This document shows positions 11,171 through 36,642 of a stretch of DNA of 64,000 nt, piece by piece. Source of the DNA: an uncultured Chloroflexota bacterium. GTDB taxonomy: Bacteria > Chloroflexota > Dehalococcoidia > Lucifugimonadales > UBA826. The stretch's first letter is position 1. Each line of letters starts with the position of its first letter. The notes under the pieces are model-generated. The model was not told the origin of the DNA, searched no databases, and worked only from the letters and a program-made list of their open reading frames with translations. A program made the translations under genes and the position numbers. The DNA lies in contig CAJWWP010000001.1 of assembly GCA_913048525.1 (NCBI GenBank), forward strand, positions 47,074-111,073, given 5' to 3'.

Positions 11171-11337
11171 GTGCACTCCTTAAATAATTTGATCAATAGA
11201 TTTATTTCTCGTCATAATATGGAATGTTACATAGCGAATGCATCATGATCAATTTCACCCATTAATATTTCCTAAAAAATTATCGAAGTACCTTGTATTT
11301 GTGGTGATAACATCATCTCCAATTTATATTTGATCGA

Positions 11338-19013: not shown

Positions 19014-20042
19014 TTAGGTCACTTCCAGTGTAGGGTTTCTAAGGGGAGCAGCAAATTGGGTTTTGTCTAACTCAATAAAGTCTTTCTGGTAGACCTGAAC
19101 TCTGTACGATTCGAAGTCAGGAATAAACAGTCTAAAATCTTCATCGATACGTACAGAACGAGGCCTTCTTATATATCTTTCATCTTCCAGTCGACCTGAT
19201 TCACGGAGTCGATTTGGCACGGCATTGGTTAGCATGTAATTTCGTGCGACCTTTGAAAGAGTGGCATCTCCCTGGAAACTCCAGACTTGATCTCCCTCTG
19301 AATTAAATTGTAGGACTCTATTATTTCCCCAGTCAGCCACATATATATCCCCGTGAGAGTCTACTGATATCCCCGTGGGTCTTTGGAATTCTGCGTCACC
19401 AGACCCAGTTTTACCAAAGGTATTTTTTAAATCCCCTACACCTGTGAAAATCTGAACTCTATTGTTTCCCCAATCGGAAACGTAAATATCGTCATTTTCA
19501 TCCACCTCAACTCCCCAGGGGAGGTTTAGCTGGCCTTCTCCACTTCCAAAAGATCCAAAGGATTCGAGGTACTTCCCGTCTATAGTGTAGCGTTGTATTC
19601 TGTGGTTTTTAGAATCCGCGATAATTAAGTTGCCAGAACTGTCGAAAGCGATTCCAGTGGGGCCGTCAAACTGTCCTACTCCTGATCCTTTCTCACCAAA
19701 TTTAGAAATGAAATTTCCTTCATTATCCAGACGGGTAATTCTGTTTGTATATTCATCACTTACAAATAGGTCTTCGTTAGGACCGGTCAATATGTTCACG
19801 GGCCATATAAATTGACCATCTTCTGTTCCGTAACTACTGAACCCTTCGAGTTCATCAGTAAGTTCCTCCATATCGTCAACTGACCATATTCTTATGGTGG
19901 CAACTCCTTCTGATCTCATTAGGATATACAGCTTCTTATCTTCACCAAAAGATATGTCGGTTGGAAAGTTTGTCACTCTCCTCATACCTAGAGTGGTCAG
20001 ATACGGAAATCCCGCTCTTAATATTCCATGTGGTCGGGTCAT
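19014..20042 (-). CDS. NHL-repeat beta-propeller protein (paralog 1)
   Basis: 342 aa. Repeated blades read G.FD.P.GIA.D..GN.YV(A/S)D..N.R(I/V)Q, e.g. YVSDWGNNRVQIF and YVADWGNNRVLQF. No signal peptide. AGAGGTA SD. Confidence 0.8.
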   Translation of the reverse strand: MTRPHGILRAGFPYLTTLGMRRVTNFPTDISFGEDKKLYILMRSEGVATIRIWSVDDMEELTDELEGFSSYGTEDGQFIWPVNILTGPNEDLFVSDEYTNRITRLDNEGNFISKFGEKGSGVGQFDGPTGIAFDSSGNLIIADSKNHRIQRYTIDGKYLESFGSFGSGEGQLNLPWGVEVDENDDIYVSDWGNNRVQIFTGVGDLKNTFGKTGSGDAEFQRPTGISVDSHGDIYVADWGNNRVLQFNSEGDQVWSFQGDATLSKVARNYMLTNAVPNRLRESGRLEDERYIRRPRSVRIDEDFRLFIPDFESYRVQVYQKDFIELDKTQFAAPLRNPTLEVT

Positions 20043-20074
20043 TGCTACTGTACCTCTTGTAACGTCATTACGAG

Positions 20075-21211
20075 TTATAGATAGAAAGGTTTAATCTGTT
20101 CAAATTCCCCTTTGACTATTGGTTTCGCATCAAGGTCGAGCCATTGTTCCAAAACAGTTCCATAGATGCCTCTGAAGTCGATGGTATGTTTCAGATCCTC
20201 GCCATGCTCCCAATCCGATGGGGCTAGCGAAGGATATTCGGAATAAAGATCACCTTTAACGTTTTTCCCAAATAAAAACGCTCCTCCTCCTGACCCATGA
20301 TCTGTGCCACTTCCATTGTCTCTCATGCGCCTTCCAAATTCAGTGAATACTAGAATTGCTACATTTTCAGATTCGTCATGTTGATCTAAGTCATCTAGAA
20401 AATCAGAAATTGCCCCGGAAAGATCGGCCATTAACTTTGGATGAGTAGGCATTTCGTTTGCGTGTGTGTCGTAACCACCGTGATTAGTATAAAAAATTCT
20501 TGTTCCTAGACCACTTAAATGTATTCTGGCCACATCTCTTAGGCTTTTGGCTATTGAGTTATCAGCATATTCGACTGAAGATTGATAGTTTGAAGCCACG
20601 TCACCGAGCATATCTGCTCCCTTAAGTACATCTAATCCAGTCTTGCCTATGTATTCAGAGACAACCCCACTACCTATGGCCTGACCGTAAATGTCTTTGA
20701 AAGCCTGCAGTGCTTTATCACGAAGCTGTTCTTTCTCAATTTGATTCATGACTCCGTAGCCTTCGAGATCACTTATTGAAGTTACAGGAACTCCAGCGAC
20801 AGACATAGCTCTTGGCAAACCTTGGCCAATATTAACTCCTGTGAGAACATTTTCGCTTTTGGGATCTAATTCACGGACGGCCAGCCCCAGCCAGCCTTCA
20901 CTTCCGACCCGATCCGGTTCACAAGTGTGCCAGATATCCATGCCTCTGAAATGAGATCTATTTGAGTCCGGATATCCGATTCCCTGTATTATGGCCATTC
21001 GTCCTTCATCGTAAAGACGTTTGAAAGGAGCCGCATTTTTGTTGATAGCTAAAGTGTCGTTAATCGGTAACACATCATCTTGACTCATCACTATCTTTTT
21101 CCGGGCATCATAGTAGTGATCATTGGTAAATGGAACGATGGTATTCATGAAATCGTTCCCACCGGTCATTTGCACTACTACAAGTGTTTTATCCTTACTC
21201 TTCGTTGCCAT
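20075..21211 (-). CDS. DUF1501 (sulfatase/alkaline-phosphatase-like) family protein, lacking a Tat signal
   Basis: LVVVQMTGGNDFMNTIVP ... HGGYDTH ... FTEFGRR ... GTDHG is the DUF1501 pattern as I remember it. ATG 21211 is preceded by AAAAGGGGAA; the longest ORF starts at TTG 21232. Confidence 0.7.
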   Translation of the reverse strand: MATKSKDKTLVVVQMTGGNDFMNTIVPFTNDHYYDARKKIVMSQDDVLPINDTLAINKNAAPFKRLYDEGRMAIIQGIGYPDSNRSHFRGMDIWHTCEPDRVGSEGWLGLAVRELDPKSENVLTGVNIGQGLPRAMSVAGVPVTSISDLEGYGVMNQIEKEQLRDKALQAFKDIYGQAIGSGVVSEYIGKTGLDVLKGADMLGDVASNYQSSVEYADNSIAKSLRDVARIHLSGLGTRIFYTNHGGYDTHANEMPTHPKLMADLSGAISDFLDDLDQHDESENVAILVFTEFGRRMRDNGSGTDHGSGGGAFLFGKNVKGDLYSEYPSLAPSDWEHGEDLKHTIDFRGIYGTVLEQWLDLDAKPIVKGEFEQIKPFYL

Positions 21212-21263
21212 TGGAATTCCCCTTTTTCTCAAACAGAGCTATCTTATGAGTATTTTTAGGATA

Positions 21264-22655
21264 TTAAGCAAATTGGTAATCTACACTAGATGCTGCCATT
21301 TGTATAAGATTGTGTACACCCGCGTTTCCTTTCTCATCGCTGAGTGTTTTTGCGTAGGCATTTAGTGATGACAGGGTCTCGTCACTAACTGTCAGCGCCC
21401 CAAGTAGATCAAGACACCTGCTAACTAATTGTTCAGGGTTGTCGTCTAAGCTACCTGCTTTAGAGAGCATCTCTGCTACACCTGGTTTATTTGGATCGGC
21501 AAACTGTTTTTCGACGAATCCAACTCTTTCACTCAACGTGCCGGAGTCTATCCACTCAAATCCGGTATGCCATCCCTCAACGGTTGGAGGGTTCATGAGT
21601 CTCTGTCCCATCACAGCAAGCGGTCCCTCTATTGCTGAACCGTTCAGAGTGGTCACGGCAAACTCATGTATCCCGGGTTTCGGTCTACTAAATTCTCCCG
21701 TCTGCCTGATCACACCCACTATGAGCTCTGTGGGGCTTTTTACCTTGGGTTTGGCCGAAGATTCCTTGAAAAATTCAGAGCTGAATAAGGTTTTCAACAC
21801 AACCTTCATATCACCCCTTGACTCCATGAACGCTGTTGTGAGCTCTTCTATAGCCTCCGGGTTTTTCGGCGGCACTGTCTCCCACGATGGGACTTGAATC
21901 TCGTCCTCTACGAAAAAGTTATATAAATGTCTGGATAAGAACCTTGCTGTTGCAGACTGTTTAATTATTATTTCTATGATGTCGCCACCGTCAAAATTTC
22001 CCCGCTGACCGAGAAATTCCTTTTCACCGTAGTCGTGATCTTCGGGTAGGAATTGGAATACGGCTTCATGGTGACCATAGGGGTAAAGAGACAATGGTTG
22101 CTTAAAAGTCCATCCTGTGAATGATCTCGAGGCATTTTTAATATCGTCTTCCGTGTAATTACCTACCCCCATGGAGAATAGTTCTAGTAACTCTCTGCCA
22201 TAATTTTCGTTAATTTCGTCTTTATGATTCTCGTTGTTGTCTAGCCAAAATATCATTGCTGGGTCTTTGGACAGTTCTAGAAGTATTTTCCCGAAATTTG
22301 TCATACCTACGTTACGGAAAAGGTTGATTTCATTGTAGAGTGAAGGGCCGTGTTCGCTCTTTCCCCAAGCGACTGGGAAAATGTGGTGAAGAAATAGTGC
22401 CATCTTTTCTTCGAGGGGGCGCTTCGTGTTGGCCATTCTGTAGAGCCATTTACCAACGTGAACAGCCACTGGCTCCCCCACGTAATATCTCTCCACATAT
22501 GACATATCGATCTCATCAAAACGTTCAGGATTAACTAGATCTTCTACGATTTCGTCATATGTTTGCTCCGAGGTCAACCGATCTAACTCAGATGGAGTTG
22601 CACCGAATCCAGCTCTTCTCATAAGGTGAGCTACCAGCTTTCTATCAGACTTCAT
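21264..22655 (-). CDS. DUF1800 family protein (paralog 1)
   Basis: HLMRRAGFGATPSEL at the N-terminus, FWLDNNENHK, NENYGRELLELFSMGVG. ATG 22655 follows TGGAGAAAG; the longest ORF starts at TTG 22670. Confidence 0.7.
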   Translation of the reverse strand: MKSDRKLVAHLMRRAGFGATPSELDRLTSEQTYDEIVEDLVNPERFDEIDMSYVERYYVGEPVAVHVGKWLYRMANTKRPLEEKMALFLHHIFPVAWGKSEHGPSLYNEINLFRNVGMTNFGKILLELSKDPAMIFWLDNNENHKDEINENYGRELLELFSMGVGNYTEDDIKNASRSFTGWTFKQPLSLYPYGHHEAVFQFLPEDHDYGEKEFLGQRGNFDGGDIIEIIIKQSATARFLSRHLYNFFVEDEIQVPSWETVPPKNPEAIEELTTAFMESRGDMKVVLKTLFSSEFFKESSAKPKVKSPTELIVGVIRQTGEFSRPKPGIHEFAVTTLNGSAIEGPLAVMGQRLMNPPTVEGWHTGFEWIDSGTLSERVGFVEKQFADPNKPGVAEMLSKAGSLDDNPEQLVSRCLDLLGALTVSDETLSSLNAYAKTLSDEKGNAGVHNLIQMAASSVDYQFA

Positions 22656-22779
22656 AGTAACTTTCTCCAATAAATGTAGGTCAATTACTTTGTTGCAACT
22701 CTACAATAATCTCATTAAATTATGAACTTAATTTTCTTACTATTGCGTGGCTAGTATCTACAAACCCTGAGTTTTATCA

Positions 22780-23669: not shown

Positions 23670-24827
23670 TTATAGAATATGCGCTTCTAGGACCTTCTCA
23701 TCGAACTCTATACCTAAACCAGGCCCTGTTGGGGGAACGATAAAGCCGTTGTCTAGGACCAATGGCTCTTTGAAAATTGATCTGTGAAGAGGTCCGTCAT
23801 TGGCCTCTTGAATTACGAAATTGGGTGAGCAAGTATCTATTTGAATTGCAGCTGCAGCGGCTACGGGACCGCAGTACATGTGGGGAGCTATCAGAGCATA
23901 GTGCGCCTCTGCTAGACCTGCGATTTTTTTTGCTTCGGTTATTCCTCCACATTGGCCTACGTCCAATTGGATAATTTGAGCCGCCTTTTTTTCTAATAGT
24001 TGAGCAAATTCGTATTTGGTAACAAGCCTCTCGCCACTAGCGATAGGAATATTTGTATGTGCGGCAACCCGGGCCATTTCGTCAATATTTTCAGGCATCA
24101 CTGGTTCTTCAAACCAGAAGGGATGGTAGGGTTCCATATAATCGGCTACTCTGATGGCACTGTATGTCGATAACTGCCCATGCGTTCCGATACCAACTTC
24201 AAGATCATTTCCGACAGCATTCCTTATGCTTTCAAAAATTTTTCCGCAGTACTCTATTTCCCATAATGGGATATCTCGAGGTCCCCGGGCTGGAGGGAAT
24301 GGATCTATTTTACAGGCGGTATTACCTTCCTCCATTAGTTGTATTGCTACATCACCGGCGATCTCCGGGTTTTCCATTATTAAGCCCTTATCCGTTCCTG
24401 GCGGCATGTATGCATATGCTCTCAGTTTTTCATGATACTTACCGCCAAGGAGATTGTAGATTGGCTGGTTGCAGGCTTTTCCTACAATGTCCCATAGAGC
24501 CATGTCTATCGCGCTCATGGCTGGTGTTGCGTACAAGCTGGGGTGTCTGAAGTCGTGAGCACCGCCGTACATGTCATCCCATATTTTTTCGATTTGAAAA
24601 GGATCTTTACCTATCACATATCTATCTGCTAACTGTTGGATAAGGCTAATATGAGGTTTGATATGTTCGGGATCAATGTAGTTGCCTACGACTCTTTCCC
24701 CGAGCCCTACTATGCCTTCATCGGTAAATATCTGTAAGAAAAGAAAATATCTGCCTCCAACAAAATGTTTTCTAGCTTTGTCTTCTTCATTTTGGATAAC
24801 CATTGTTTTAACTTTAGTTATTTTCAC
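23670..24827 (-). CDS. enolase-superfamily acid-sugar dehydratase-like enzyme
   Basis: 385 aa. MKITKVKT start, DMALWDIVGKACNQPIYNLLGG, FEEP, ASGE. GTG start with AAGGAA SD. Confidence 0.8.
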   Translation of the reverse strand: MKITKVKTMVIQNEEDKARKHFVGGRYFLFLQIFTDEGIVGLGERVVGNYIDPEHIKPHISLIQQLADRYVIGKDPFQIEKIWDDMYGGAHDFRHPSLYATPAMSAIDMALWDIVGKACNQPIYNLLGGKYHEKLRAYAYMPPGTDKGLIMENPEIAGDVAIQLMEEGNTACKIDPFPPARGPRDIPLWEIEYCGKIFESIRNAVGNDLEVGIGTHGQLSTYSAIRVADYMEPYHPFWFEEPVMPENIDEMARVAAHTNIPIASGERLVTKYEFAQLLEKKAAQIIQLDVGQCGGITEAKKIAGLAEAHYALIAPHMYCGPVAAAAAIQIDTCSPNFVIQEANDGPLHRSIFKEPLVLDNGFIVPPTGPGLGIEFDEKVLEAHIL

Positions 24828-26573: not shown

Positions 26574-27596
26574 ATGAAACCAAAATATTTAAAAACTATC
26601 GGCATAAAAACTAATCAACCCGTTGGGAGAGGTTTTCTTTTCCCATACGATGTTACATTTGATTCTTCTGGGATGATTTATGCTCTAAACAGGGGGAGAA
26701 TCAGTCAGGGCCTTGGTACCAGAATACAGATATTTGATTACGATGAAGAATGGTACGGTGAATTTGGGGAAGGAAGTGGAACAGGCCCTTTAAACTTTCT
26801 AATTCCTGTGGCAACAGCATTCAATTCCAAAGATGAACTTTTTGTGAGCGATGAAGGCGCCGGAGAGGTCAAAGTTTTCAGTCAGAAAGGTATCCCTTTA
26901 TATCAGGTAGGAGGGGAATCTGGTACGTGGGGCTGTGAGTTAATGGGTCCTTCTGGCATCGCGTTTGATGCAGATGACAATCTTTACGTTACCGAACGTT
27001 CTGCTTCTCGCCTGACGAAGATAGATGGCGATGGGAATGTAAGATACAGGGTTGGTGAGCCTGGTGATGGTCATCTGCAGTTCAATATGCCCTGGGGGAT
27101 AGCGACGGATGAGGACGGCTGTGTATATGTGGCAGATTGGAGAAACGATAGGATTCAAAAACTAGACCCTGATGGAAATTTCATCAAAGTATTTGGGAAA
27201 TCTGGAAACGCCGAGGGTCATTTCAATAGACCTTCCTCAGTCGCTGTGGATGGTAGTGGGAATATGTACGTGACTGACTGGGGAAATGAAAGGGTGCAGG
27301 TGCTTGATCCTGAGGGGCATTTTTTGCAAATACTTGAAGGCCAGGCGACTCTTTCTAAATGGGCTGAACAGTGGCTGACAGTCAACCCTGACGAATATTC
27401 TGCTAGGCGCTCATCAAATCTTTCGGTTTTGGATTTGCCTGCTCATCTGCAGAGTCCTTATCAGATTGGTTCACAGACTGAACATCTGTTTTGGGGTCCT
27501 GTATCAGCAAAGATAGATGATCATGAAAGGCTATACATAACCGAGCATAGTCGAGCTCGGATTCAGGTTTTCGATATATCTGATAAGGGCCTATGA
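26574..27596 (+). CDS. NHL-repeat beta-propeller protein (paralog 2)
   Basis: 340 aa. Blades include YVADWRNDRIQKL and YVTDWGNERVQVL. Shares the unusual ATLSK segment with paralog 1. Confidence 0.8.
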   Translation: MKPKYLKTIGIKTNQPVGRGFLFPYDVTFDSSGMIYALNRGRISQGLGTRIQIFDYDEEWYGEFGEGSGTGPLNFLIPVATAFNSKDELFVSDEGAGEVKVFSQKGIPLYQVGGESGTWGCELMGPSGIAFDADDNLYVTERSASRLTKIDGDGNVRYRVGEPGDGHLQFNMPWGIATDEDGCVYVADWRNDRIQKLDPDGNFIKVFGKSGNAEGHFNRPSSVAVDGSGNMYVTDWGNERVQVLDPEGHFLQILEGQATLSKWAEQWLTVNPDEYSARRSSNLSVLDLPAHLQSPYQIGSQTEHLFWGPVSAKIDDHERLYITEHSRARIQVFDISDKGL

Positions 27597-27640
27597 GTTA
27601 AAGAATCTGGCAACTACCGTTAGGTTATGGGGTACAAGTT

Positions 27641-29086
27641 ATGACAATTGCTCGAAGAAATGTACAAGTTAACACTAAATACAGGCAGATAAGCCATCTT
27701 TTGAGGCGAGCAGGATTTGGTGCCACACCCGGTGAGATGGATCGCTATATGGGAATGGATTATTCAGAGGTTGTCGATGAACTTCTCAATGTACCAGGAA
27801 CATCTGCTATGCCAAATGACGTGATATTCAGAATGTTTCCCGAATATCACGCTTCCCTTGGTGTAGACGCATGTGCCAATTGGGCTTACAGAATGGTTTC
27901 TACAGATAATCCGTTGGAAGAGAAAATAGCTCTTTTCTGGCATGGAATATTCGCTACTGGGAATGACAAGCTCAACAATCCACTGGTTTTACTTAATCAG
28001 ATTGACACATTTAGAAGAAACGGAATGAGTAGATTTGACGATATATTGCTCGATCTCTCCAGAGACCCCGCCATGTTGATTTGGCTGGATAATCAGACTA
28101 ACCATAAGGATTCAATTAACGAGAATTATGGACGAGAAATCCTAGAATTATTCTCAATGGGTGTTGGTAATTATACCGAAGATGACATCAAAGAATGCGC
28201 TCGAGCTTTTACAGGATGGTCGGTAAAAAATGCCGAGTACATGGCTTTGATGGGCCAAAAAGACTCGATATGGCCCTATAGCAGAATTTCATGGCATTAC
28301 GAGTATTGTCAGAATGATCATGATGATAGTGAAAAGACTTTCCTAGGCGAAATGGGTAAATTCGGCGGGGAGGATATTATAGAAATTATTTGCAGACAAG
28401 AATCCACAGCAAAATTTATATCGCGGCATTTATATAATTTTTTCGTGGAGGATGAGGTTCAAGTGCCTTCATGGCAGGATGTGCCTCCTAAGAATCCCGA
28501 GGCAATATCTACTCTGATGGAGGCATATTTTGAGCACGGGCATGATTTAAATAAGGTTCTGAAGGTTCTTTTTGAATCCGATTTCTTTAAAGAATCTGAG
28601 TATAAGAAAGTTAAGGGTCCGGCGGAGATGGTTATTAATGTCCTTCGCTTGTCAGGTGGGTTTGAGGAGCCGAGCCTATCAATGATCCAGGCGGTTGACG
28701 AGGCAGGATTTATGGGGCAATTACTTTTTTACCCTCCATCAGTAGAAGGTTGGCACACCGGTCAGGAATGGATTACAAGCGGATCGGTGCTAGATAGAGT
28801 AAATTTTTCGTCAGCTCGCTTAACCGATCTGTCTTCTCCAGGCATTAGAGATATAGTAAACAGAGTAAGGAACCGTTGTGGGGCTGATACAAGACCAGAT
28901 TATGTAATACAAGTTTTTCTTGAGCTTTTGGGAATAATTGAAATTTCGGATATGACATTTGATCTATTGTTGGAGGTCTGTGGTGGAGAGAATTCCGTGA
29001 TTGACGTAACTACCGGGAGTTTTGATGTGATGGCATCGAATCTCCTACGTGTTATAGGCTCTTCGAAAGAGTTTCACTTAGTGTAA
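27641..29086 (+). CDS. DUF1800 family protein (paralog 2)
   Basis: 481 aa. HLLRRAGFGATPGEM, IWLDNQTNHK, NENYGREILELFSMGVGNYTEDDIK. Long peptide blocks are shared with 21264..22655. Confidence 0.7.
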   Translation: MTIARRNVQVNTKYRQISHLLRRAGFGATPGEMDRYMGMDYSEVVDELLNVPGTSAMPNDVIFRMFPEYHASLGVDACANWAYRMVSTDNPLEEKIALFWHGIFATGNDKLNNPLVLLNQIDTFRRNGMSRFDDILLDLSRDPAMLIWLDNQTNHKDSINENYGREILELFSMGVGNYTEDDIKECARAFTGWSVKNAEYMALMGQKDSIWPYSRISWHYEYCQNDHDDSEKTFLGEMGKFGGEDIIEIICRQESTAKFISRHLYNFFVEDEVQVPSWQDVPPKNPEAISTLMEAYFEHGHDLNKVLKVLFESDFFKESEYKKVKGPAEMVINVLRLSGGFEEPSLSMIQAVDEAGFMGQLLFYPPSVEGWHTGQEWITSGSVLDRVNFSSARLTDLSSPGIRDIVNRVRNRCGADTRPDYVIQVFLELLGIIEISDMTFDLLLEVCGGENSVIDVTTGSFDVMASNLLRVIGSSKEFHLV

Positions 29087-29414
29087 TTATCCGGATTATG
29101 GAAATACGACTTTGTCTTCAATTCCGGACTGGAATAAGTCACCTTCAAAATAGAATTTTGCAATCTCTTTTTCGTCCAACTCATTCAGCGATATCGTCCA
29201 CATAGCCAGGGGGTAAAGCGACAAGCACCATAAACCCTCACCATTTCTCATGAGGTTTCAAGCGTGGGGAGAGTTACCCTATATTTGAGCTCAGTCCCGC
29301 ATAAAATTTTGAATGCATTTAGTATAACGATCCACCATTTGGAGCTCCAACCCAAATGACGGATTGTCTACTACACACATACCTCTGTGAATGAAAAAAA
29401 AGAGGAAAAAATTA

Positions 29415-29987
29415 ATGAATGACTTTGACGCATTAGTTTCTAAAATTGAACAAATCGCAAAAAATAAGCCGCACACAATTATAGGAATTACGGGGTTTGG
29501 AGGATCAGGTAAATCATATTTAACAGATAGACTGAAAGACCATTTTGGTATTAATGACGATCAGATTGTTCGAATTGATAATTTATATGGTCTAAATCCT
29601 AACGGGCCAGGGATATTTGATCAGAGTGATTGGAATCTCATAGAACATATTCTTAAAGATTCAAGTGCTGGTAAGAGGATTAAATATCAAGGAAAGGACA
29701 ATAAAGGAAAGGTTCTATATTTTGACGAAGATTTACCCGAAATAGTTATTTTCGAGGGAATAAGACTACTGCAGCCAGAGTTTAATCAATATTTTGACAT
29801 AAGTGTGTGGATTGACTGTCCTCAAGATTTCGCCATCGAACGTGCGAAGGCTAGAGATCGCTCACAAGGAGCAGATGAAGAAACCGTAGGTGGCTGGGAT
29901 ACTGATTGGGGACCAAAGGACAAAAAATATTTTGACTCCTATAGACCTGATCAATTAGCAAACTTTATCTACAGGGATTATCAATAA
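29415..29987 (+). CDS. uridine kinase/phosphoribulokinase-family P-loop kinase
   Basis: Walker A GITGFGGSGKS, Walker-B-like IVIFEGI, and a lid-like region WIDCPQDFAIERAKARD. ATG 29415 follows AGAGGA by 8 nt; the longest ORF starts at ATG 29391. Confidence 0.6.
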   Translation: MNDFDALVSKIEQIAKNKPHTIIGITGFGGSGKSYLTDRLKDHFGINDDQIVRIDNLYGLNPNGPGIFDQSDWNLIEHILKDSSAGKRIKYQGKDNKGKVLYFDEDLPEIVIFEGIRLLQPEFNQYFDISVWIDCPQDFAIERAKARDRSQGADEETVGGWDTDWGPKDKKYFDSYRPDQLANFIYRDYQ

Positions 29988-30064
29988 GTGAGAAAAAAGA
30001 TTTATAGTTTATCCGATTCCTAGAAACCGATCGATCGAATGCTTAATTATAGAAGGTGAGGAAT

Positions 30065-31666
30065 ATGCCAATTGATCACGACCGAGAGTACTGGAAGCCT
30101 GGAATGCCCTGGGACAAGGCTCTTGAAGATATCGAGTATGTTAAGGAACTTGCCAGCGAAATGGGAGGTTCGGATCGAATCGAACGCCAACACAGTGGGG
30201 GCCGATATACGGTCAGGGAAAGGATAGAAAAGATTCTAGACTCTGGTAGTTTTCTTGAAGCTGGACCAATGGTGGGAGCCGCCGAATTTGACGATGATGG
30301 CAATCTGAAAGAATTTACTCCCGGAGCCTACGTCATGGGGCTTGGAGAAATAGATGGCCGTCCAGTTGCAATTGGAGGTGATGATTTCACGATTTCGGGT
30401 GGTAGTCCCCACAATGTCAGGAAAAATTCTCGCCAATTCACACAACCACTGGCGATGCAATATGGCATTCCATATGTGCAGCTGGTTGAGGGTGTTGGGC
30501 ATAGTGCGAAAGCGGATGAGGCGGCAGGTCATATGGGACTTCCGGATGGATCACAGTGGCATGAAGGAGTGGAACTTTTAAAAAAAGTTCCTGTTGCTGC
30601 TGGAATAATGGGTTCGGTTGCAGGGGCTCCGGCAGCTTACGCTTTAATGTCTCACTTTACGGTTATGGTAAAGGAGCAATCCCAAATATTCCCCTCTGGA
30701 CCTCCTGTGGTTAGACGTGCGATTGGGGAAACTCTTGATAAAGAAGAACTTGGCGGATACAGGATGCATGTTCATGACAGTGGTCAGGTTGATAATGTTG
30801 CCGATACTGAAGAAGAGGCTTTTGAACAGATTAAAAAGTTTATATCCTACCTACCCAATACCACATCCGATGTCGCAGACCGCGTGGAAACTGGTGATTC
30901 TCCAGATAGGAGACCTGAAGAATTACTAAGCATTATTCCACCTAATCGAAAGCGTTCATATGACCCTCGTAAACTTATAAGTTTGGTTGTCGACAATGGT
31001 GATTTTTTTGAGATGAGGAGACATTGGGCAGGGGCTGTTATCACGGGATTTGCAAGACTGGATGGGTACAGCGTTGGTATCGTAGGTAGCGACCCAAGAT
31101 TTCTCGCAGGTGCTATGGACGGCTGGGCGGCTGAAAAATATACTCACTTTCTCGATCTCTGCGATGCCTTCAATTTGCCGGTTGTGGTATTTCTGGACAT
31201 GCCCGGGTTTATGTTGGGATCCCATGCGGAGAGAAAGGCCACTATGAGGAGGGGAGTGAGAGCGCTCATTGCTAGCGCAGAGGCCGAAATTCCCAAAGTA
31301 GAATTCAATGTAAGAAAGGCGTATGGAGTTGCTGCTGACGCAATACATAGTCTCGGACATCCCAATGGATTAAATCTTCGTTATGGCTGGCCCGCGGGAG
31401 AATGGGGTGGGATACCAATAGAAGGGGGTGTTGCTGCCGCTTACAGAAGGGAAATTGAATCTGCGGAAGATCCGGAAGCACACAGGGAGATGATTGAGAA
31501 TAGGTTACTAAGACTCAGATCCCCTTTTAGAGCTGCCTACAAAGGCGACGTGGTTGATCTAATAGACCCGAGAGATACTAGGCGGTTAGCATGTAAGTTT
31601 GTGAAGTTGGCCCAACCTATGCTGGCCAAACTTTCACAGAGGCCTAAGAGGGCTGTTAGGCCATAA
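30065..31666 (+). CDS. acyl-CoA carboxyltransferase (biotin-dependent carboxylase beta / 12S-type subunit)
   Basis: About 533 aa. RIERQHSGGRYTVRERIEKILDSGSFLE at the N-terminus and two crotonase-like halves (GGDDFTISGGS ... FLDMPGFMLG) are typical of the carboxyl_trans domain. The longest ORF starts at GTG 30056. Confidence 0.85.
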   Translation: MPIDHDREYWKPGMPWDKALEDIEYVKELASEMGGSDRIERQHSGGRYTVRERIEKILDSGSFLEAGPMVGAAEFDDDGNLKEFTPGAYVMGLGEIDGRPVAIGGDDFTISGGSPHNVRKNSRQFTQPLAMQYGIPYVQLVEGVGHSAKADEAAGHMGLPDGSQWHEGVELLKKVPVAAGIMGSVAGAPAAYALMSHFTVMVKEQSQIFPSGPPVVRRAIGETLDKEELGGYRMHVHDSGQVDNVADTEEEAFEQIKKFISYLPNTTSDVADRVETGDSPDRRPEELLSIIPPNRKRSYDPRKLISLVVDNGDFFEMRRHWAGAVITGFARLDGYSVGIVGSDPRFLAGAMDGWAAEKYTHFLDLCDAFNLPVVVFLDMPGFMLGSHAERKATMRRGVRALIASAEAEIPKVEFNVRKAYGVAADAIHSLGHPNGLNLRYGWPAGEWGGIPIEGGVAAAYRREIESAEDPEAHREMIENRLLRLRSPFRAAYKGDVVDLIDPRDTRRLACKFVKLAQPMLAKLSQRPKRAVRP

Positions 31667-32859
31667 TGGGGAAGATTCCTAAAGGAAACAGTCATCAACT
31701 TCCTCTTGAAGGGACAAGAGTTCTAGAGGTATCCGAGGGTGTTGCCGGTCCGTACTGTGGTAGGTATCTAGCATCGCTGGGTGCTGAAGTTGTTAAGATT
31801 GAGCGTCCTCCACTTGGCGACTGGACCAGAGAAGTGGGCCCATTTATTGAGGGTCTGCCTCCCGGGGATAATAGCGCTCTTAACTTATACAACAATCAAG
31901 GAAAGAAGTCCGTCCTGTTGGAATGGACATCCAACAACGGGTTTGAGAACCTCCAATCTTTAGTGCCGGGGTTCGATATTCTTATAGAAGATTGGGATTT
32001 AAATCTTAGGGATGATATTGGTGTCGAGCGTAGTAGATTCGTTGATTCCAATCCAGGACTTATAGAGATTTCAGTGACTCCGTTTGGGCTTTCTGGTCCG
32101 TATGCAAGATGGAAGTCAAGTCCACTTGTCCAGCTGGCTCTGGGCGGATATATGTATCTCACAGGTGAAAGGGGTAAGGAACCTCTGATGCTTCCTGGGA
32201 GACAGCCTGATTATTTGACCGGTTTGAATGCTAGTGCTGCAGTCCACATAGCGCTATGGGAGAGGGAAAGGAGCGGGTCTGGGCAATTCCTCGAGATGTC
32301 TATGTTGGAGACCCTTGCAACATTGCATCAGTTTACAATGGAAATGACTACCTTTGAGGGAGTTCTTCGGATGAGAAACGGGAATCAGTGGCAGAAGGAG
32401 AGCTCTTTTGCATCGTACGGAATAACTACTTTGCCTTGTAGTGACGGGTACATCTGTTTTGGTATTTCTACAGAAGATCAATGGGAGCGTCTATGCGCAA
32501 TGATAGGTAGGGAAGATCTAATAGATGACCCAAATTACGATACCAGAATAAAAAGAGCTGATAACTCGGAATATCTTGACGAACTTCTTACTGAATGGAT
32601 TTCGAATCGCACCCGGCGTGAAATCTTTGTGGAAACTTCAGAAATTTGGGGACTGCCAACTGCACCAATTCTCGATATGTCTGAAGTAGTAAAAGACGAG
32701 CAGTTCATCTACAGAAATATTTTCCACGACCAAGTGCTTGGTAAAGGGCAGACTGTCACATTCCCTAAATATCCATATATTGCTTCGGAGATGAAGCCTA
32801 GGATAGGAATGGCACCGCGTCTTGGTGAACATACTGAAGATGTGTTGAGGACTAAGTGA
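31666..32859 (+). CDS. family III (CaiB/BaiF) CoA-transferase, subunit/paralog A
   Basis: 397 aa. LGAEVVKIERPPLGDWTR motif. The start ATG overlaps the upstream stop (TAATG). Confidence 0.85.
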   Translation: MGKIPKGNSHQLPLEGTRVLEVSEGVAGPYCGRYLASLGAEVVKIERPPLGDWTREVGPFIEGLPPGDNSALNLYNNQGKKSVLLEWTSNNGFENLQSLVPGFDILIEDWDLNLRDDIGVERSRFVDSNPGLIEISVTPFGLSGPYARWKSSPLVQLALGGYMYLTGERGKEPLMLPGRQPDYLTGLNASAAVHIALWERERSGSGQFLEMSMLETLATLHQFTMEMTTFEGVLRMRNGNQWQKESSFASYGITTLPCSDGYICFGISTEDQWERLCAMIGREDLIDDPNYDTRIKRADNSEYLDELLTEWISNRTRREIFVETSEIWGLPTAPILDMSEVVKDEQFIYRNIFHDQVLGKGQTVTFPKYPYIASEMKPRIGMAPRLGEHTEDVLRTK

Positions 32860-34055
32860 ATATGGTTCAGGGCCTTGTTTCCTCAGGAAGCCTATCGAAT
32901 ATTCGTGTTCTTGACCTAACTCGAGTTTGGGCTGGTCCTTTGGCGACTAGAGTGATGGGTGACTTTGGTGCTGACATAATCAAGATAAGTGATCCTAGAG
33001 TACAACTTCTGAGTTCCAACGGTCTAAACCACAAACTTAACCGCAACAAAAGAAATATTGGGATCAGGCTGGATATAGAGGAAGGAAGAGAAATATTGCT
33101 TGGACTTGTAAGAAAGTCTGACGTAATAGTTGAGAACTTCCGGCCCCGAGTGATGAGAAATTTGAAGATAGATTATGAAGTTCTCAAAACTGTTAAACCA
33201 GATATTATTTTTGTGTCGATGCCTGGTTTTGGAGCGAATGGGCCTTATTCTGAGTACCCTGCGTTTGGAACGACAGCTGAGGCAGTAGCTGGTATTCCCT
33301 CCCTTATAGGCTACGGAGACGGAGTGCCAATATCTACCGGTATAGCTTATGGTGATCCTGTCTCGGGTCTGAATGCCATAACTTTAATAATGGCTGCTCT
33401 CCGAATGAGGAATAAGACAGGACACGGACAATTTATAGACATCGCATTGTCAGCAAGTCCACTGTGCAATATTGGCGAGTATGTTGCAGCATATTCGAGC
33501 TCAGAAAACATCACCAGTCCCTCCGGCAACAGGTCTATAGAATATTCTCCGCAAGGTGCTTTTCGATGCAGGGGAAGAGATCAATGGATTGGTATCAGTG
33601 TCTTTAATGACGACGAGTGGATGAACTTGAAAGACTTAGTTAGTGATCCCGATCTCAATAACATAGAAACGTTTAGCTTGGAACAAAGACAAGATAATGA
33701 GGAGATCATAGAAGGAGCAATAGCAAAATGGACGTCTAGGCTTGACGTATTTGAAGCCGTTTCTCTTCTTCAGGAAAATGGCGTCAGGGCTGGTACGGTC
33801 AGCAGTGGCGCTCAACTCTTGGAGGATCCTCACCTAAACGATCGGGATTTCTTTTTTGATCTTGAAGAGAAAGAATATGGGTGGAAAAGATATGATGGGA
33901 ATTCCATTCCCGGGAATAGGATTCCCAAGTCTCAATGGAGTCCAACCAACAATGTTGGTGTTAATAGCAAAGAAATACTAACCGATTTATTAGGGTATAC
34001 AGAATCTTTTTGCGAAGCCCTGGCCTCAAAGGAAGCGGTTTATTTTGAGGAGTGA
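32856..34055 (+). CDS. family III (CaiB/BaiF) CoA-transferase, subunit/paralog B
   Basis: 399 aa. FGADIIKISDP and the catalytic-Asp context IAYGDPVSGLNA. The GTG start overlaps the upstream TGA (GTGA); ATG 32862 is an alternative start. Confidence 0.85.
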   Translation: MNMVQGLVSSGSLSNIRVLDLTRVWAGPLATRVMGDFGADIIKISDPRVQLLSSNGLNHKLNRNKRNIGIRLDIEEGREILLGLVRKSDVIVENFRPRVMRNLKIDYEVLKTVKPDIIFVSMPGFGANGPYSEYPAFGTTAEAVAGIPSLIGYGDGVPISTGIAYGDPVSGLNAITLIMAALRMRNKTGHGQFIDIALSASPLCNIGEYVAAYSSSENITSPSGNRSIEYSPQGAFRCRGRDQWIGISVFNDDEWMNLKDLVSDPDLNNIETFSLEQRQDNEEIIEGAIAKWTSRLDVFEAVSLLQENGVRAGTVSSGAQLLEDPHLNDRDFFFDLEEKEYGWKRYDGNSIPGNRIPKSQWSPTNNVGVNSKEILTDLLGYTESFCEALASKEAVYFEE

Positions 34056-34080
34056 ACGTTGAAAGAAAGGAGTCTTAAGA

Positions 34081-34302
34081 ATGGCAGTCCATGAAGTAAA
34101 ATCCCCGATGACCGGTCGGGTTGTAGAGGTACTAGTTTCGGTTGGTGATCACGTAGTAGAGGCAGATCTCCTAGTGGTTGTTGAATCGATGAAGATGGAG
34201 AATGAGGTTTTCTCTGAAGTTGCAGGGACTGTATCCGAAGTACGGGTAGAAGAGGACCAAAACGTGAGCGAGGAGGAAGTTATCTTTGTTATATCTGACT
34301 GA
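34081..34302 (+). CDS. stand-alone biotinyl/lipoyl carrier domain protein (mini-BCCP)
   Basis: 73 aa. Biotinylation motif VVESMKMENEV (Lys38, nt 34192-34194). AAGGAG SD. Confidence 0.8.
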   Translation: MAVHEVKSPMTGRVVEVLVSVGDHVVEADLLVVVESMKMENEVFSEVAGTVSEVRVEEDQNVSEEEVIFVISD

Positions 34303-34358
34303 GTTTGAAATAGCATATTTCGTAGCTAAATTAAACGATATGTGAAAGAGGTATCTTA

Positions 34359-34721
34359 GTGAAAGTTGCGTACATATTAAATACCCCGAATGCGGCAAAT
34401 TATAAGGTTGGATCCATGATTCTTCCACAACTTGAGGCCGGAACCCATGGTGTTGACGTATTGGGGATATTTTTCTTTGATGATAATTGTTTCATGTTGC
34501 GGGAAGGAGATCCTAAGGGAGAAAGGCTAGCTGCCATCGCTAAAGAAAAAGGAATGCTGCTAATGATGTGTGATCAATGCGCAATTCAAAGAGGCTTGGC
34601 GACTGGTGAAACAGGGGAGGCTGAGGTTAATGGAGTGGCCGAAGGGGTGTCGGTGGGATGTTTCCCGGATCTTTATGCCGCTCTTGCTCCTAATCCTCCT
34701 GACCAGGTGATATCTCTGTAG
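34359..34721 (+). CDS. DsrE/TusD-like small protein (tentative)
   Basis: 120 aa. MKVAYILN start, FFFDDNCF and MCDQCAIQRGL resemble the DsrE-family pattern (FF..DGV ... C..(C/A)...RG(L/I)). GTG start with AAGAGG SD. Confidence 0.4.
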   Translation: MKVAYILNTPNAANYKVGSMILPQLEAGTHGVDVLGIFFFDDNCFMLREGDPKGERLAAIAKEKGMLLMMCDQCAIQRGLATGETGEAEVNGVAEGVSVGCFPDLYAALAPNPPDQVISL

Positions 34722-34760
34722 AAAACGTCCATATTAATCAGCTACACCAAAGTACATATA

Positions 34761-35486
34761 ATGATGTATATGGCGTCTCTTCCCTTACATAAAATCCGCA
34801 TTTTGCATACGTCAGATACACATCTTGGTGACCCTTATGGGCACCCGATATCTGAAATAGCTTTTGCATCAACTGTTAGAGCCGCTGATGTTTTCAATGC
34901 GGACTACATGCTAATTGCGGGGGATGTTTTTGATAATGCTCGGATTGAAGATTCGGTAATCAGTAATTTTTTTGATCAGCTTGCTAAATTAGATATCCCT
35001 GTGATTATTCTTCCTGGAAACCATGATTTGATGGATGAACATTCCTTGTACAAGCGGGATTTGTTTTTAAACGCACCCTCTAATCTCTATGTATTTAGTA
35101 GAAATGAAGGTGAATTATTCTCATTCCCTGAAATAGATTTTTGGGGCAAAGCTATGGTTGAGCATAGTCCTGAGTTCAAACCTCTTAATGGAATGGCACA
35201 GGCTTCTAGGAGCAAGTGGCTAGTAGGAATGGCCCACGGTCACTTCGAAGAAAAGGGTGTTGGAAGTGGACGATCATCTTTGATATTTCCTTCCGACATA
35301 GCCTCTCTTAGTTGCCACTATCTTGCTCTTGGCCATTGGGATGTCTACACGGATGTGTCGCAAGGAGATGTCCCCGCCTTCTATTCTGGAGCTCCCGCAG
35401 GTATATTCAGGTCTAATTTCTCTGCTATAACTGTTGACTTGGATCCAGAAAATGGTGTTACTCACCGCTTGAGGAAATTTGATTGA
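34761..35486 (+). CDS. calcineurin-like metallophosphoesterase
   Basis: 241 aa. The motifs occur in canonical order: HTSDTHLG, AGDVFD, GNHD, MAHGH, GHWD. Confidence 0.75.
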   Translation: MMYMASLPLHKIRILHTSDTHLGDPYGHPISEIAFASTVRAADVFNADYMLIAGDVFDNARIEDSVISNFFDQLAKLDIPVIILPGNHDLMDEHSLYKRDLFLNAPSNLYVFSRNEGELFSFPEIDFWGKAMVEHSPEFKPLNGMAQASRSKWLVGMAHGHFEEKGVGSGRSSLIFPSDIASLSCHYLALGHWDVYTDVSQGDVPAFYSGAPAGIFRSNFSAITVDLDPENGVTHRLRKFD

Positions 35487-35557
35487 TGCCGATGTGACTA
35501 CGATGCCTCTGTCGTATAACCTTCCAGTAAGTAAATAGGCACAATGAGGAGATTGTA

Positions 35558-36214
35558 GTGCACAAAATTGAAGACATGTGGATAACCCCTGGTCCTAGAC
35601 CTAATGGGCTTCAAGCCTCTGAAGAAGGGCTTTGGGTAATAGATGCAGGTAATAATCATGTATATCTTCTGGACTATGAAACGGGACAGCCCCATGTGGA
35701 CGTTGAAACGGAAACCTATAAATCCAGTGGGATCACAGCGATTCGAGAAGAATTGTGGGTTTCATCAACTCATAACTCGCGAATATATAGACTGGAGAAA
35801 GACGGAAGCACTATAGAATATTTTGATCCCCCAGGTCTAAATGATGTGGATCCACGGGATTCGGGACCCGACTATATAAGACCTCACGGGTTGGAATGGA
35901 TGAATAACAGCACGGTTTGGGTTTCTGTGAAGCCTGCTCTTCGGAATTATCTATTCGATATATCTACGAGACGCATTATTAAGTCTATACCCACTCCGGG
36001 AGTTGCTCCCCATGGATTAGCTTGGGATGGAGAGGGATTATGGTGTGCCGATAGAGCTAGCGGCACTATTCATAAACTTGAACCTGATTCCGGAGTTGTG
36101 TTGGATGAAATCAAGGTGCAGGAGCCGGAATTGCATGGACTGACGATTCACGAAAACTATCTGTGGTTTTGTTGCGATCCGAGCAGGCGCGTCTGTAGGA
36201 TTCAGTTGGATTGA
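35558..36214 (+). CDS. beta-propeller-like repeat protein (glutamine-cyclotransferase-like, tentative)
   Basis: 218 aa. Four spaced (P/L)(N/H)GL...W repeats: PNGLQASEEGLW, PHGLEW, PHGLAWDGEGLW, LHGLTIHENYLW. GTG start with GAGGAG SD. Confidence 0.35.
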   Translation: MHKIEDMWITPGPRPNGLQASEEGLWVIDAGNNHVYLLDYETGQPHVDVETETYKSSGITAIREELWVSSTHNSRIYRLEKDGSTIEYFDPPGLNDVDPRDSGPDYIRPHGLEWMNNSTVWVSVKPALRNYLFDISTRRIIKSIPTPGVAPHGLAWDGEGLWCADRASGTIHKLEPDSGVVLDEIKVQEPELHGLTIHENYLWFCCDPSRRVCRIQLD

Positions 36215-36246: not shown

Positions 36247-36642
36247 ATGACTTATTCCGTAAACCATGTACATATTAGGGCGAAAGATCCAGATGAATCG
36301 GCTAAGTGGTATGAGGAATTCTTTGATGCCAAAATACTGTCATCGCGGGAAGTAATGCCGGGAACTATTACTGTTAGTATGGACGCTGGTGGACCAGTGA
36401 GACTAAATATTTCTTCACAACCTGAGGGCTCCTCTGATAACACCGTACCTGCAGAACTAAATCGGCTAGGGCTCGAGCATTTTGGGTTCGATACCACTGA
36501 TATCGAATTTGATATACGGAAATTTGAGAGCGCTGGAGTGAGAATTGTTTTGCCTATTACGGAAATTTCCGGCGGGACAAAACTTGCCTACATAGAGGGA
36601 CCGGACAAGGTTCTGATAGAACTGGTTCAACCTGTTCATTAG
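36247..36642 (+). CDS. VOC (glyoxalase/bleomycin-resistance/extradiol dioxygenase) family protein
   Basis: 131 aa. VNHVHIRAKDPDESAKWYEEFF and GLEHFGF ... IELVQ are typical paired beta-alpha-beta-beta-beta modules. AAGGAGA SD. Confidence 0.8.
   Translation: MTYSVNHVHIRAKDPDESAKWYEEFFDAKILSSREVMPGTITVSMDAGGPVRLNISSQPEGSSDNTVPAELNRLGLEHFGFDTTDIEFDIRKFESAGVRIVLPITEISGGTKLAYIEGPDKVLIELVQPVH

Follow-up and report, generated by a model that had tools for sequence, protein, structure and literature searches.

A candidate acyl-CoA carboxylase with dispersed subunits and a dedicated two-subunit CoA-transferase in an uncultured Chloroflexota bacterium

The DNA considered here is a stretch of 64,000 nucleotides from an uncultured Chloroflexota bacterium of the Dehalococcoidia, a marine member of SAR202 (contig CAJWWP010000001.1, positions 47,074 to 111,073), hereafter called the window. 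Between positions 30056 and 34302 its forward strand carries four open reading frames (ORFs), which encode a carboxyltransferase (CT), two family-III CoA-transferases and a biotin carboxyl carrier protein (BCCP) of 73 amino acids. The CT (30065..31666, + strand) is a PccB/12S-like protein of 533 amino acids in which PF01039 covers residues 41-517 (E = 8e-98). It is followed on the same strand by CoA-transferase subunit 1 (31666..32859, 397 amino acids; PF02515, E = 4.7e-79), CoA-transferase subunit 2 (32856..34055, 399 amino acids; PF02515, E = 4.3e-83) and the BCCP, a stand-alone biotinyl carrier or mini-BCCP with its biotinyl lysine at Lys38 (34081..34302; PF00364, E = 5.5e-20).

The junctions between these genes can be read directly in the sequence. 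The CT gene and the gene for subunit 1 overlap in TAATG (31664..31668, + strand), where the stop TAA and the start ATG have one base in common, and the genes for subunits 1 and 2 overlap in GTGA (32856..32859, + strand). The GTG at 32856 is preceded, at a distance of 5 nt, by a GAGGA ribosome-binding site. Gene callers disagree about this start, and an alternative ATG at 32862 would shorten subunit 2 to 397 amino acids and turn the 4-nt overlap into a 2-nt gap. The BCCP gene begins 25 nt after the end of the subunit 2 gene and is preceded by an AAGGAG ribosome-binding site. The stop/start overlaps indicate that the genes are co-translated. An earlier reading of this DNA, made from the letters alone (the sequence-only reading), had described this gene content and its tight coupling, and the ORFs, Pfam matches and junctions all agree with it, down to both overlaps, the 25-nt gap and the ESMKME motif around Lys38 of the 73-residue carrier. 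The four ORFs and the overlaps lie where it had placed them, except that its start of the CT at 30056 has to be moved and that subunit 2 may start at the ATG at 32862. The CT ORF spans 30056-31666, and the ATG at 30065 is preceded by a GGTGAGG ribosome-binding site. Because of this site, because the gene callers predict 533 residues and because nearly all homologs have 533 residues, the true start is almost certainly this ATG and not the GTG at 30056. These homologs are 76-100% identical to the CT and carry the labels SAR202 or Dehalococcoidia. In 29000-35600, scans for promoters and terminators produced matches no more numerous than in shuffled sequence, and the limits of the operon are not defined by them. 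An identical BCCP occurs on ten marine contigs, including one from the NCBI metagenome-assembled genome (MAG) GCA_009391645.1. These belong to one population, in which the gene order is unchanged.

The PF01039 match and the matches to PccB-like solved structures, at 265-298 bits, identify the CT as a crotonase-fold protein with N and C domains. Among solved structures the best matches are 1x0u, 1vrg, 7w5u and 1on3, at 275-298 bits. Resemblance at 260-298 bits extends over PccB of archaea and bacteria, the 12S subunit (275 bits) and human PCCB. The structures of GcdA, in contrast, are distant (83-97 bits), and the beta subunits of MCC and GCC are likewise far. Against TIGR01117, the model for MmdA, the CT scores 350 bits, far under the cutoff of 998.8. 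On these scores it does not belong with the alpha subunits of the MmdA/GcdA-type decarboxylases. The sequence-only reading had proposed that the CT be placed against PccB, GcdA, MmdA and 12S, and the structure matches place it closest to PccB, archaeal PccB and 12S and not to GcdA.

The CT family is strongly conserved, with a mean column identity of 87% in an alignment of 23 sequences. In the N domain the canonical motif DSGGARIQ is replaced by EGVGHSAK (DSGGARIQEG by EGVGHSAKADEA), and the replacement is conserved across the family. In PccB this motif region presumably makes up the oxyanion hole for the acyl-CoA. At the position aligned with D422 of PccB the CT has an Asp. Conservation of this residue is a feature of CTs that carboxylate propionyl-CoA (PMC7835884), and the Asp may be read as weakly suggesting that the acyl-CoA substrate is small. 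Individual SAR202 MAGs contain several CT paralogs (2-3), which fall into distinct clades and have distinct neighbors.

The conservation of the locus was assessed in a scan with one genome per species, which found 320 loci with a relative of the CT. The counts given below refer to the best 80 of these (80-97% identity), whose ORFs were searched with the window proteins and with AccC of E. coli. The hosts of these 80 include Dehalococcoidia/SAR202, Tepidiformaceae, Pseudomonadales, other marine or sponge-associated Gammaproteobacteria and Entotheonella. Next to the CT, both transferase lineages are found together and in order, as a pair or as a fusion, in 32 loci; a 73-residue BCCP is found in 34 and a biotin carboxylase (BC) in 16. 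The arrangement of the window, with a split transferase pair and a BCCP, is seen in 9 of the 80 loci, and a fused transferase with both BCCP and BC in 14. The split pair occurs without a BCCP in 7 loci, the BCCP alone in 8 and other combinations in 3, and the remaining 39 CTs have no partner beside them.

In a neighbor-joining tree of the CTs the clades follow the gene arrangement. The window clade (the window with loci L011, L012 and L021) always has the order CT, transferase 1, transferase 2 and BCCP. In a further locus, L103, the CT is 88% identical to that of the window and the same four genes are present amid other flanks, and the four genes are therefore regarded as a conserved core. Over the loci as a whole, the two transferase lineages recur in the same order next to the CT, next to the BCCP or next to both. 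At least four arrangements of this kind are seen, in addition to the fusion. The synteny anticipated by the sequence-only reading is thus conserved, as a set of permutations instead of one fixed order. The CTs of the Chloroflexota are 82-84% identical to those of Gammaproteobacteria and Entotheonella (closed Pseudomonadales/Azotimanducaceae loci L043, L073, L074, L080 and L083; Entotheonella locus L085). This identity is far above the expectation for vertical descent between phyla and points to horizontal transfer of the CT. The gammaproteobacterial CT adjoins an NHL-repeat or enolase-superfamily gene and has neither a BCCP nor CoA-transferases beside it.

The two CoA-transferases are 22% identical to each other and, to judge from this distance, are old paralogs. 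They had been called CaiB from the letters alone, a label that applies only at the level of the superfamily, since both fall far below the cutoff for L-carnitine CoA-transferase (85 and 108 bits against NF002914, CaiB proper, with a cutoff of 413). Their matches to the benzylsuccinate CoA-transferase structure 9fn0 are reciprocal. Subunit 1 scores 144 bits with chain A and 82 bits with chain B, and subunit 2 scores 174 bits with chain B, its top match among solved structures, and 58 bits with chain A. In 15 of the 80 loci the transferase is a single fused protein of ~805 amino acids with its domains in the order of the window genes, a form seen in many Dehalococcoidia. The N-terminal half of the fused protein is orthologous to subunit 1 (44% identity over 383 amino acids) and its C-terminal half to subunit 2 (45% identity over 375 amino acids). 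Because of this same-order fusion in other genomes and the reciprocal match to the two chains of 9fn0, the prediction that subunits 1 and 2 form a BbsEF-like heteromer is strongly, though indirectly, supported, and the proposal of a heteromeric CoA-transferase in the sequence-only reading gains by the same evidence.

The catalytic Asp, equivalent to Asp169 of Frc, lies in RQPDYLTGL of subunit 1, at about residue 182, and in AYGDPVSGL of subunit 2. In the subunit 2 lineage it is present in 39 of 39 sequences. In the subunit 1 lineage it is present in all 21 unfused orthologs, including that of the window, and is replaced by Gln or Glu in the fused proteins. Similarly, chain A of 9fn0 has a Tyr aligned with the Asp of subunit 1, and it is chain B that carries the catalytic Asp. 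Since both window subunits keep the Asp, unlike the fused proteins and chain A of 9fn0, the window CoA-transferase may have two different active sites. Across the loci, fusion of the transferase goes together with loss of one active-site Asp (L020, L022, L031, L041, L095, L098, L099, L105 and others).

In the BCCP the biotinyl Lys38 lies within ESMKMENE and thus in the (A/S)MKM motif of biotin carriers. Its 38 orthologs (73-74 amino acids) are colinear, and SMKMENE is invariant among them whether a BC gene adjoins or not. The window BCCP is 63% identical to the BCCP of a cluster that also encodes a BC.

The sequence-only reading had also remarked on what the window lacks. No BC was found among the window ORFs by blastp with AccC of E. 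coli, and a tblastn search of the window at E <= 10, in which three BCs from the associated family were the queries, likewise gave only noise. The window also has no membrane beta subunit, as all of its ORFs with at least six predicted helices encode MFS transporters or NfeD, and no OAD_beta was present among the Pfam-labelled related loci. Both absences were therefore borne out. The absence of a 5S-type subunit, an HMGL-like TIM barrel, holds within 10 kb on either side and in the 10 larger window ORFs that were scanned, with the rest of the window covered only through larger ORFs.

The BC is present in related loci. The clade with fused transferases has the locus order [BioY], fused CoA-transferase (~805 amino acids), BCCP (73 amino acids), BC (445 amino acids) and CT. 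Because the BC sits between the BCCP and the CT in this clade, an ATP-grasp BC does serve the CT family. When one of these BCs was used as a query, stand-alone BCs of 442-463 amino acids were recovered as a family, and eight closed chromosomes with a BC-less CT locus also carry a BC of this family. The distance from BC to CT was measured on three of the eight and ranges over 0.3-1.25 Mb. On OY761144.1 the BC lies in a locus with the order CoA-transferase, fused CoA-transferase, BCCP, PLD-like gene and BC, ~0.34 Mb from a CT with an adjoining enolase-superfamily (MR_MLE) gene. On OY764155.1 the order is CoA-transferase, fused CoA-transferase, BCCP and BC, ~1.25 Mb from the CT, and OY282441.1 has a BC on its own at a distance of ~0.49 Mb from the CT. 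Two further metagenomic contigs repeat this pattern. Since the BC is far from the CT on closed chromosomes, and since seven loci have not even a BCCP beside the transferase pair, dispersal of the parts is the norm in this CT family. Two side observations concern these BC loci. The gene between BCCP and BC on OY761144.1 (L098, 9233-9979) encodes 248 amino acids with a weak PLD-like Pfam match and no NCBIfam match, and it is without a counterpart in the window. The lone BC of OY282441.1 lies beside genes for a CD-NTase C-terminal domain and Cap15 (L104, 1-1249), which are of the CBASS anti-phage type and unrelated to the carboxylase.

The associated BCs score 477-515 bits against TIGR00514 (AccC), which has a cutoff of 626.5, and the CT, the BC and both transferases are all well below the curated equivalog cutoffs. 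Because both the CT and the BC fall under these cutoffs, the carboxylase system is, by this measure, a distinct and unnamed family.

These observations are best accommodated by an acyl-CoA carboxylase that has three components and depends on ATP. Its subunits would be dispersed, with the BC gene in another part of the genome, and a dedicated two-subunit family-III CoA-transferase would serve it. The probability of this interpretation is put at roughly 60%. In the first step the CoA-transferase heteromer would load a carboxylic acid onto CoA without spending ATP, with an acyl-CoA as donor, probably succinyl-CoA or the pathway's own product. A BC acting in trans would then carboxylate the biotin on Lys38 of the BCCP with ATP and bicarbonate, and the CT would pass the carboxyl group to the alpha-carbon of the acyl-CoA. 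This implies that such a BC would exist in this organism and pair with its BCCP. Because of the similarity to PccB and the Asp at the D422-equivalent position, the substrate may be guessed to be a short acyl-CoA of about the size of propionyl-CoA, possibly substituted. Dispersed subunits have a precedent in the mycobacteria, where the numbers of BC and CT genes are uneven and holoenzymes combine different CT subunits (PMC13612425). The sequence-only reading had left two options for the absent BC. That of a BC borrowed from elsewhere is favored by the BC in cis in one clade and by the BCs that lie hundreds of kb away on closed chromosomes. For that of a novel decarboxylase no evidence was found, and its sole ground was the lack of a BC, although in this CT family such a lack is normal.

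Several points weigh against a three-component carboxylase. The CT departs from the canonical DSGGAR motif of the N domain. The BC of this organism was found neither in the 64-kb window nor on the ten contigs with the identical BCCP. A metagenome scan with the BC alignment gave, among the matches listed, only ordinary BCs (<=50% identity) without the partners of the family and with the generic motif GGGGIGM. Within 10 kb there is no BC in the CT clade of the window or in the other clades with split transferases, all of which are on incomplete contigs from MAGs or single-amplified genomes. Among the 80 loci a BC near the CT occurs almost only in the clade with fused transferases, with one apparently split case flagged. 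Because the N-terminal transferase half of the fused clade has lost its Asp, the split systems may not have the same function as the fused ones. Finally, we infer both the substrate and the direction of the reaction.

The alternative that survives best, although it is unlikely, is that the CT and BCCP are subunits of a general acetyl- or propionyl-CoA carboxylase and that the transferase pair is a salvage enzyme, such as a succinyl-CoA:propionate or succinyl-CoA:acetate transferase. The extreme sequence conservation of the CT would suit such a role, as would the Asp aligned with D422 and the BioY gene that adjoins loci containing a BC. In one clade the BCCP and CT genes also lie among genes of a housekeeping type (GHMP kinase, acetyl-CoA-synthetase-like and DinG), and papers on SAR202 label such genes as propionyl- or acetyl-CoA carboxylase (PMC5395668). 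A general carboxylase, however, fits poorly with the presence in each genome of several CT paralogs that differ in clade and in neighbors, with scores of the CT, BC and transferases well under the equivalog cutoffs, or with the repeated linkage of the CT to an enolase-superfamily gene. In addition, the presence of ~84% identical family members in Pseudomonadales suggests horizontal transfer of an accessory function. Bacteria of this order normally have an acetyl-CoA carboxylase of the AccABCD type.

It is improbable that the CT and BCCP operate independently of a BC and without ATP, either as an acyl-CoA:acyl-CoA transcarboxylase or as a soluble decarboxylase of a dicarboxylyl-CoA. As a transcarboxylase, the enzyme would move carboxy-biotin from one dicarboxylyl-CoA to another acyl-CoA, possibly between CT paralogs, and the 2-3 paralogs of each SAR202 MAG could supply both half-reactions. 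The lack of a BC in the window and within 10 kb of any locus with a split transferase agrees with this proposal. So does the resemblance to BbsEF, which would provide a dicarboxylyl-CoA substrate, as BbsEF and SmtAB reportedly act on substituted succinates (C4-dicarboxylates). However, the CTs of BC-linked and BC-less loci are >80% identical, their BCCPs are colinear and share the invariant motif, and closed genomes pair BC-less CT loci with a BC of the specific family elsewhere on the chromosome. Moreover, useful decarboxylation of carboxy-biotin requires a catalyst, as in the biochemistry of Oad, Mmd and Gcd, and the window has no membrane beta subunit and no 5S-like partner within 10 kb or in its larger ORFs. 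A narrower form of the proposal, which would be confined to SAR202 with split transferases, envisages a soluble, BC-free and ATP-independent transcarboxylase or decarboxylase that is fed by a CoA-transferase with two active sites, perhaps with several CT paralogs, during the breakdown of carboxyl-rich dissolved organic matter; this seems quite improbable.

That the transferase pair came to lie between the CT and the BCCP by chance is scarcely credible, even though dozens of family-III transferases crowd SAR202 single-cell genomes (PMC5395668) and no transferase is near the CT in 39 of the 80 loci. One and the same pair of orthologous lineages recurs in order in at least four arrangements and as a fusion, and it accompanies BCCP and BC even where the CT lies elsewhere. 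In the window the stop/start overlaps indicate co-translation, and in L103 and the window the pair stays within the four-gene core amid different flanks.

Of the characterized systems, the three-subunit acyl-CoA carboxylases of Sulfolobus and Metallosphaera (CT structure 1x0u) resemble the proposed three-component carboxylase in having a single-chain, two-domain CT and a separate BCCP and BC. In contrast, the window BCCP has only 73 residues and is without an N-terminal extension, the BC of the window family is often unlinked, the CT has EGVGHS in place of DSGGAR, and the CT and BC are under all curated cutoffs. The carboxylase of the window family is also constantly associated with a two-subunit or fused CoA-transferase. 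In the literature searched, no CoA-transferase-linked carboxylase module was described, nor was such a link described for any characterized carboxylase. The actinobacterial PccB and AccD5 are also close to the window CT. In this comparison the best solved matches of the CT are 1x0u, 1vrg, 7w5u and 1xnv. The acyl-CoA carboxylases of mycobacteria and Streptomyces are alike in having CT genes away from the BC partner and several CT paralogs (PMC13612425). Their BC and BCCP are fused in an alpha subunit, however, and an epsilon subunit is present, whereas the window family has a separate BC and BCCP together with a CoA-transferase. GcdABCD, MmdABCD, OadABG and the transcarboxylase of Propionibacterium (12S/5S/1.3S) also combine a CT with a small biotin carrier and have no BC in the operon. 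The window differs from them in that neither a beta subunit nor, within the range already given, a 5S subunit is encoded, and in that orthologous loci contain a BC.

For the CoA-transferase the closest parallel is BbsEF (9fn0), which likewise consists of two adjacent, anciently diverged family-III subunits with reciprocal chain matches. Unlike in BbsEF, the Asp that is missing from chain A is kept in subunit 1, no benzylsuccinate synthase or other bbs-type beta-oxidation genes lie near the window pair, and the phmmer scores are modest (144 and 174 bits). The host also differs, as it is a marine and presumably aerobic heterotroph. DddD, a dimethylsulfoniopropionate CoA-transferase/lyase, has two tandem family-III domains at residues 1-416 and 439-821 (PMC7174347). 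The ~805-residue fused relatives have the same tandem layout and are likened to DddD by layout only, not by sequence. Transferases of SAR202 have been reported to match DddD (PMC5395668). However, DddD has not been reported as linked to a carboxylase, and the two domains of the window are separate genes. Plasmid records searched by tblastn with the fused transferase yielded fused homologs of 31-34% identity, among which no record was annotated as DddD, and were uninformative on the substrate. Of two plasmid contexts of fused homologs that were inspected, one (a Bosea plasmid) has an MR_MLE gene nearby, and neither has a carboxylase.

In the dark ocean, SAR202 ranks with the most abundant groups of bacteria, and it is considered to oxidize recalcitrant, carboxyl-rich organic matter. 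We know of no substrates that have been assigned to their many CoA-transferase and enolase-superfamily paralogs. In the conserved module that the comparisons above define, a two-subunit or fused CoA-transferase is combined with a 73-residue BCCP, a divergent BC and a CT of very high conservation, and in many cases an enolase-superfamily gene and BioY are present too. On the interpretation given here, what is new is a family of biotin-dependent acyl-CoA carboxylases in which the carrier is unusually small, the subunits are dispersed, the CT motif is divergent and the CoA-transferase, heteromeric or fused, is a dedicated one; the chemistry is probably conventional. If the substrate were identified, a large part of marine metabolism that is now unannotated would gain a function, and the heterotrophs of SAR202 would have a defined carboxylation step that incorporates CO2. 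There is a practical warning as well. Because BC-less loci are normal in this CT family, the absence of a BC beside a CT and a BCCP is no sign of a decarboxylase.

Among the neighboring genes, an enolase-superfamily protein of the MR_MLE type, which is galactonate-dehydratase-like (23670..24827, - strand; NF010624 at 266 bits, cutoff 311), lies outside the four-gene core. Its orthologs (69-72% identity) are directly upstream of the CT in 10 loci, and homologs (~40%) are upstream of the fused CoA-transferase in loci that contain a BC. The MR_MLE protein is a recurrent partner of this CT family, turning up with the CT or with the BC, and may belong to the same pathway. Downstream of the BCCP lies a gene for a SaoD/DsrE family protein of 120 amino acids (34359-34721, + strand; NF040913 at 189.5 bits, cutoff 152, with a marginal match to Pfam DsrE), and upstream of the CT lies a gene for a P-loop kinase (29391-29987). 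Both were considered as members of the unit and rejected, since they are kept only in the closest relatives, L011 and L021, and are absent from L012 and L103, where the four-gene core is present. The SaoD/DsrE-like gene is probably outside the carboxylase unit. A VOC/glyoxalase gene (36247-36642) was considered as a methylmalonyl-CoA epimerase and rejected at 28 bits against a cutoff of 115.

The wider surroundings of the window fit what is known of SAR202 genomes, with their short-chain dehydrogenases, luciferase-like monooxygenases, enolase-superfamily genes and MFS transporters (PMC5395668). Two diverged sets of NHL-repeat and DUF1800 genes (33% and 46% identity) flank the region at 19014-22670 (- strand) and 26574-29086 (+ strand). 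The same families, together with DUF1501, occur beside the four-gene core in L103 and represent a recurrent gene set of SAR202. Thiamine-diphosphate enzymes (TPP_enzyme_N/M/C) lie near family-III CoA-transferases both in the window, at 9509-11176 (- strand) and 56239-57903 (+ strand), and in L101 (15674-17362) and L105 (11568-13211). These enzymes could reflect acyl-CoA-cleaving chemistry of the 2-hydroxyacyl-CoA lyase kind. Lastly, the window encodes at 58870-60489 (+ strand) a flavin-dependent protein of 539 amino acids with a tryptophan-halogenase domain (PF04820, E = 5.7e-46).

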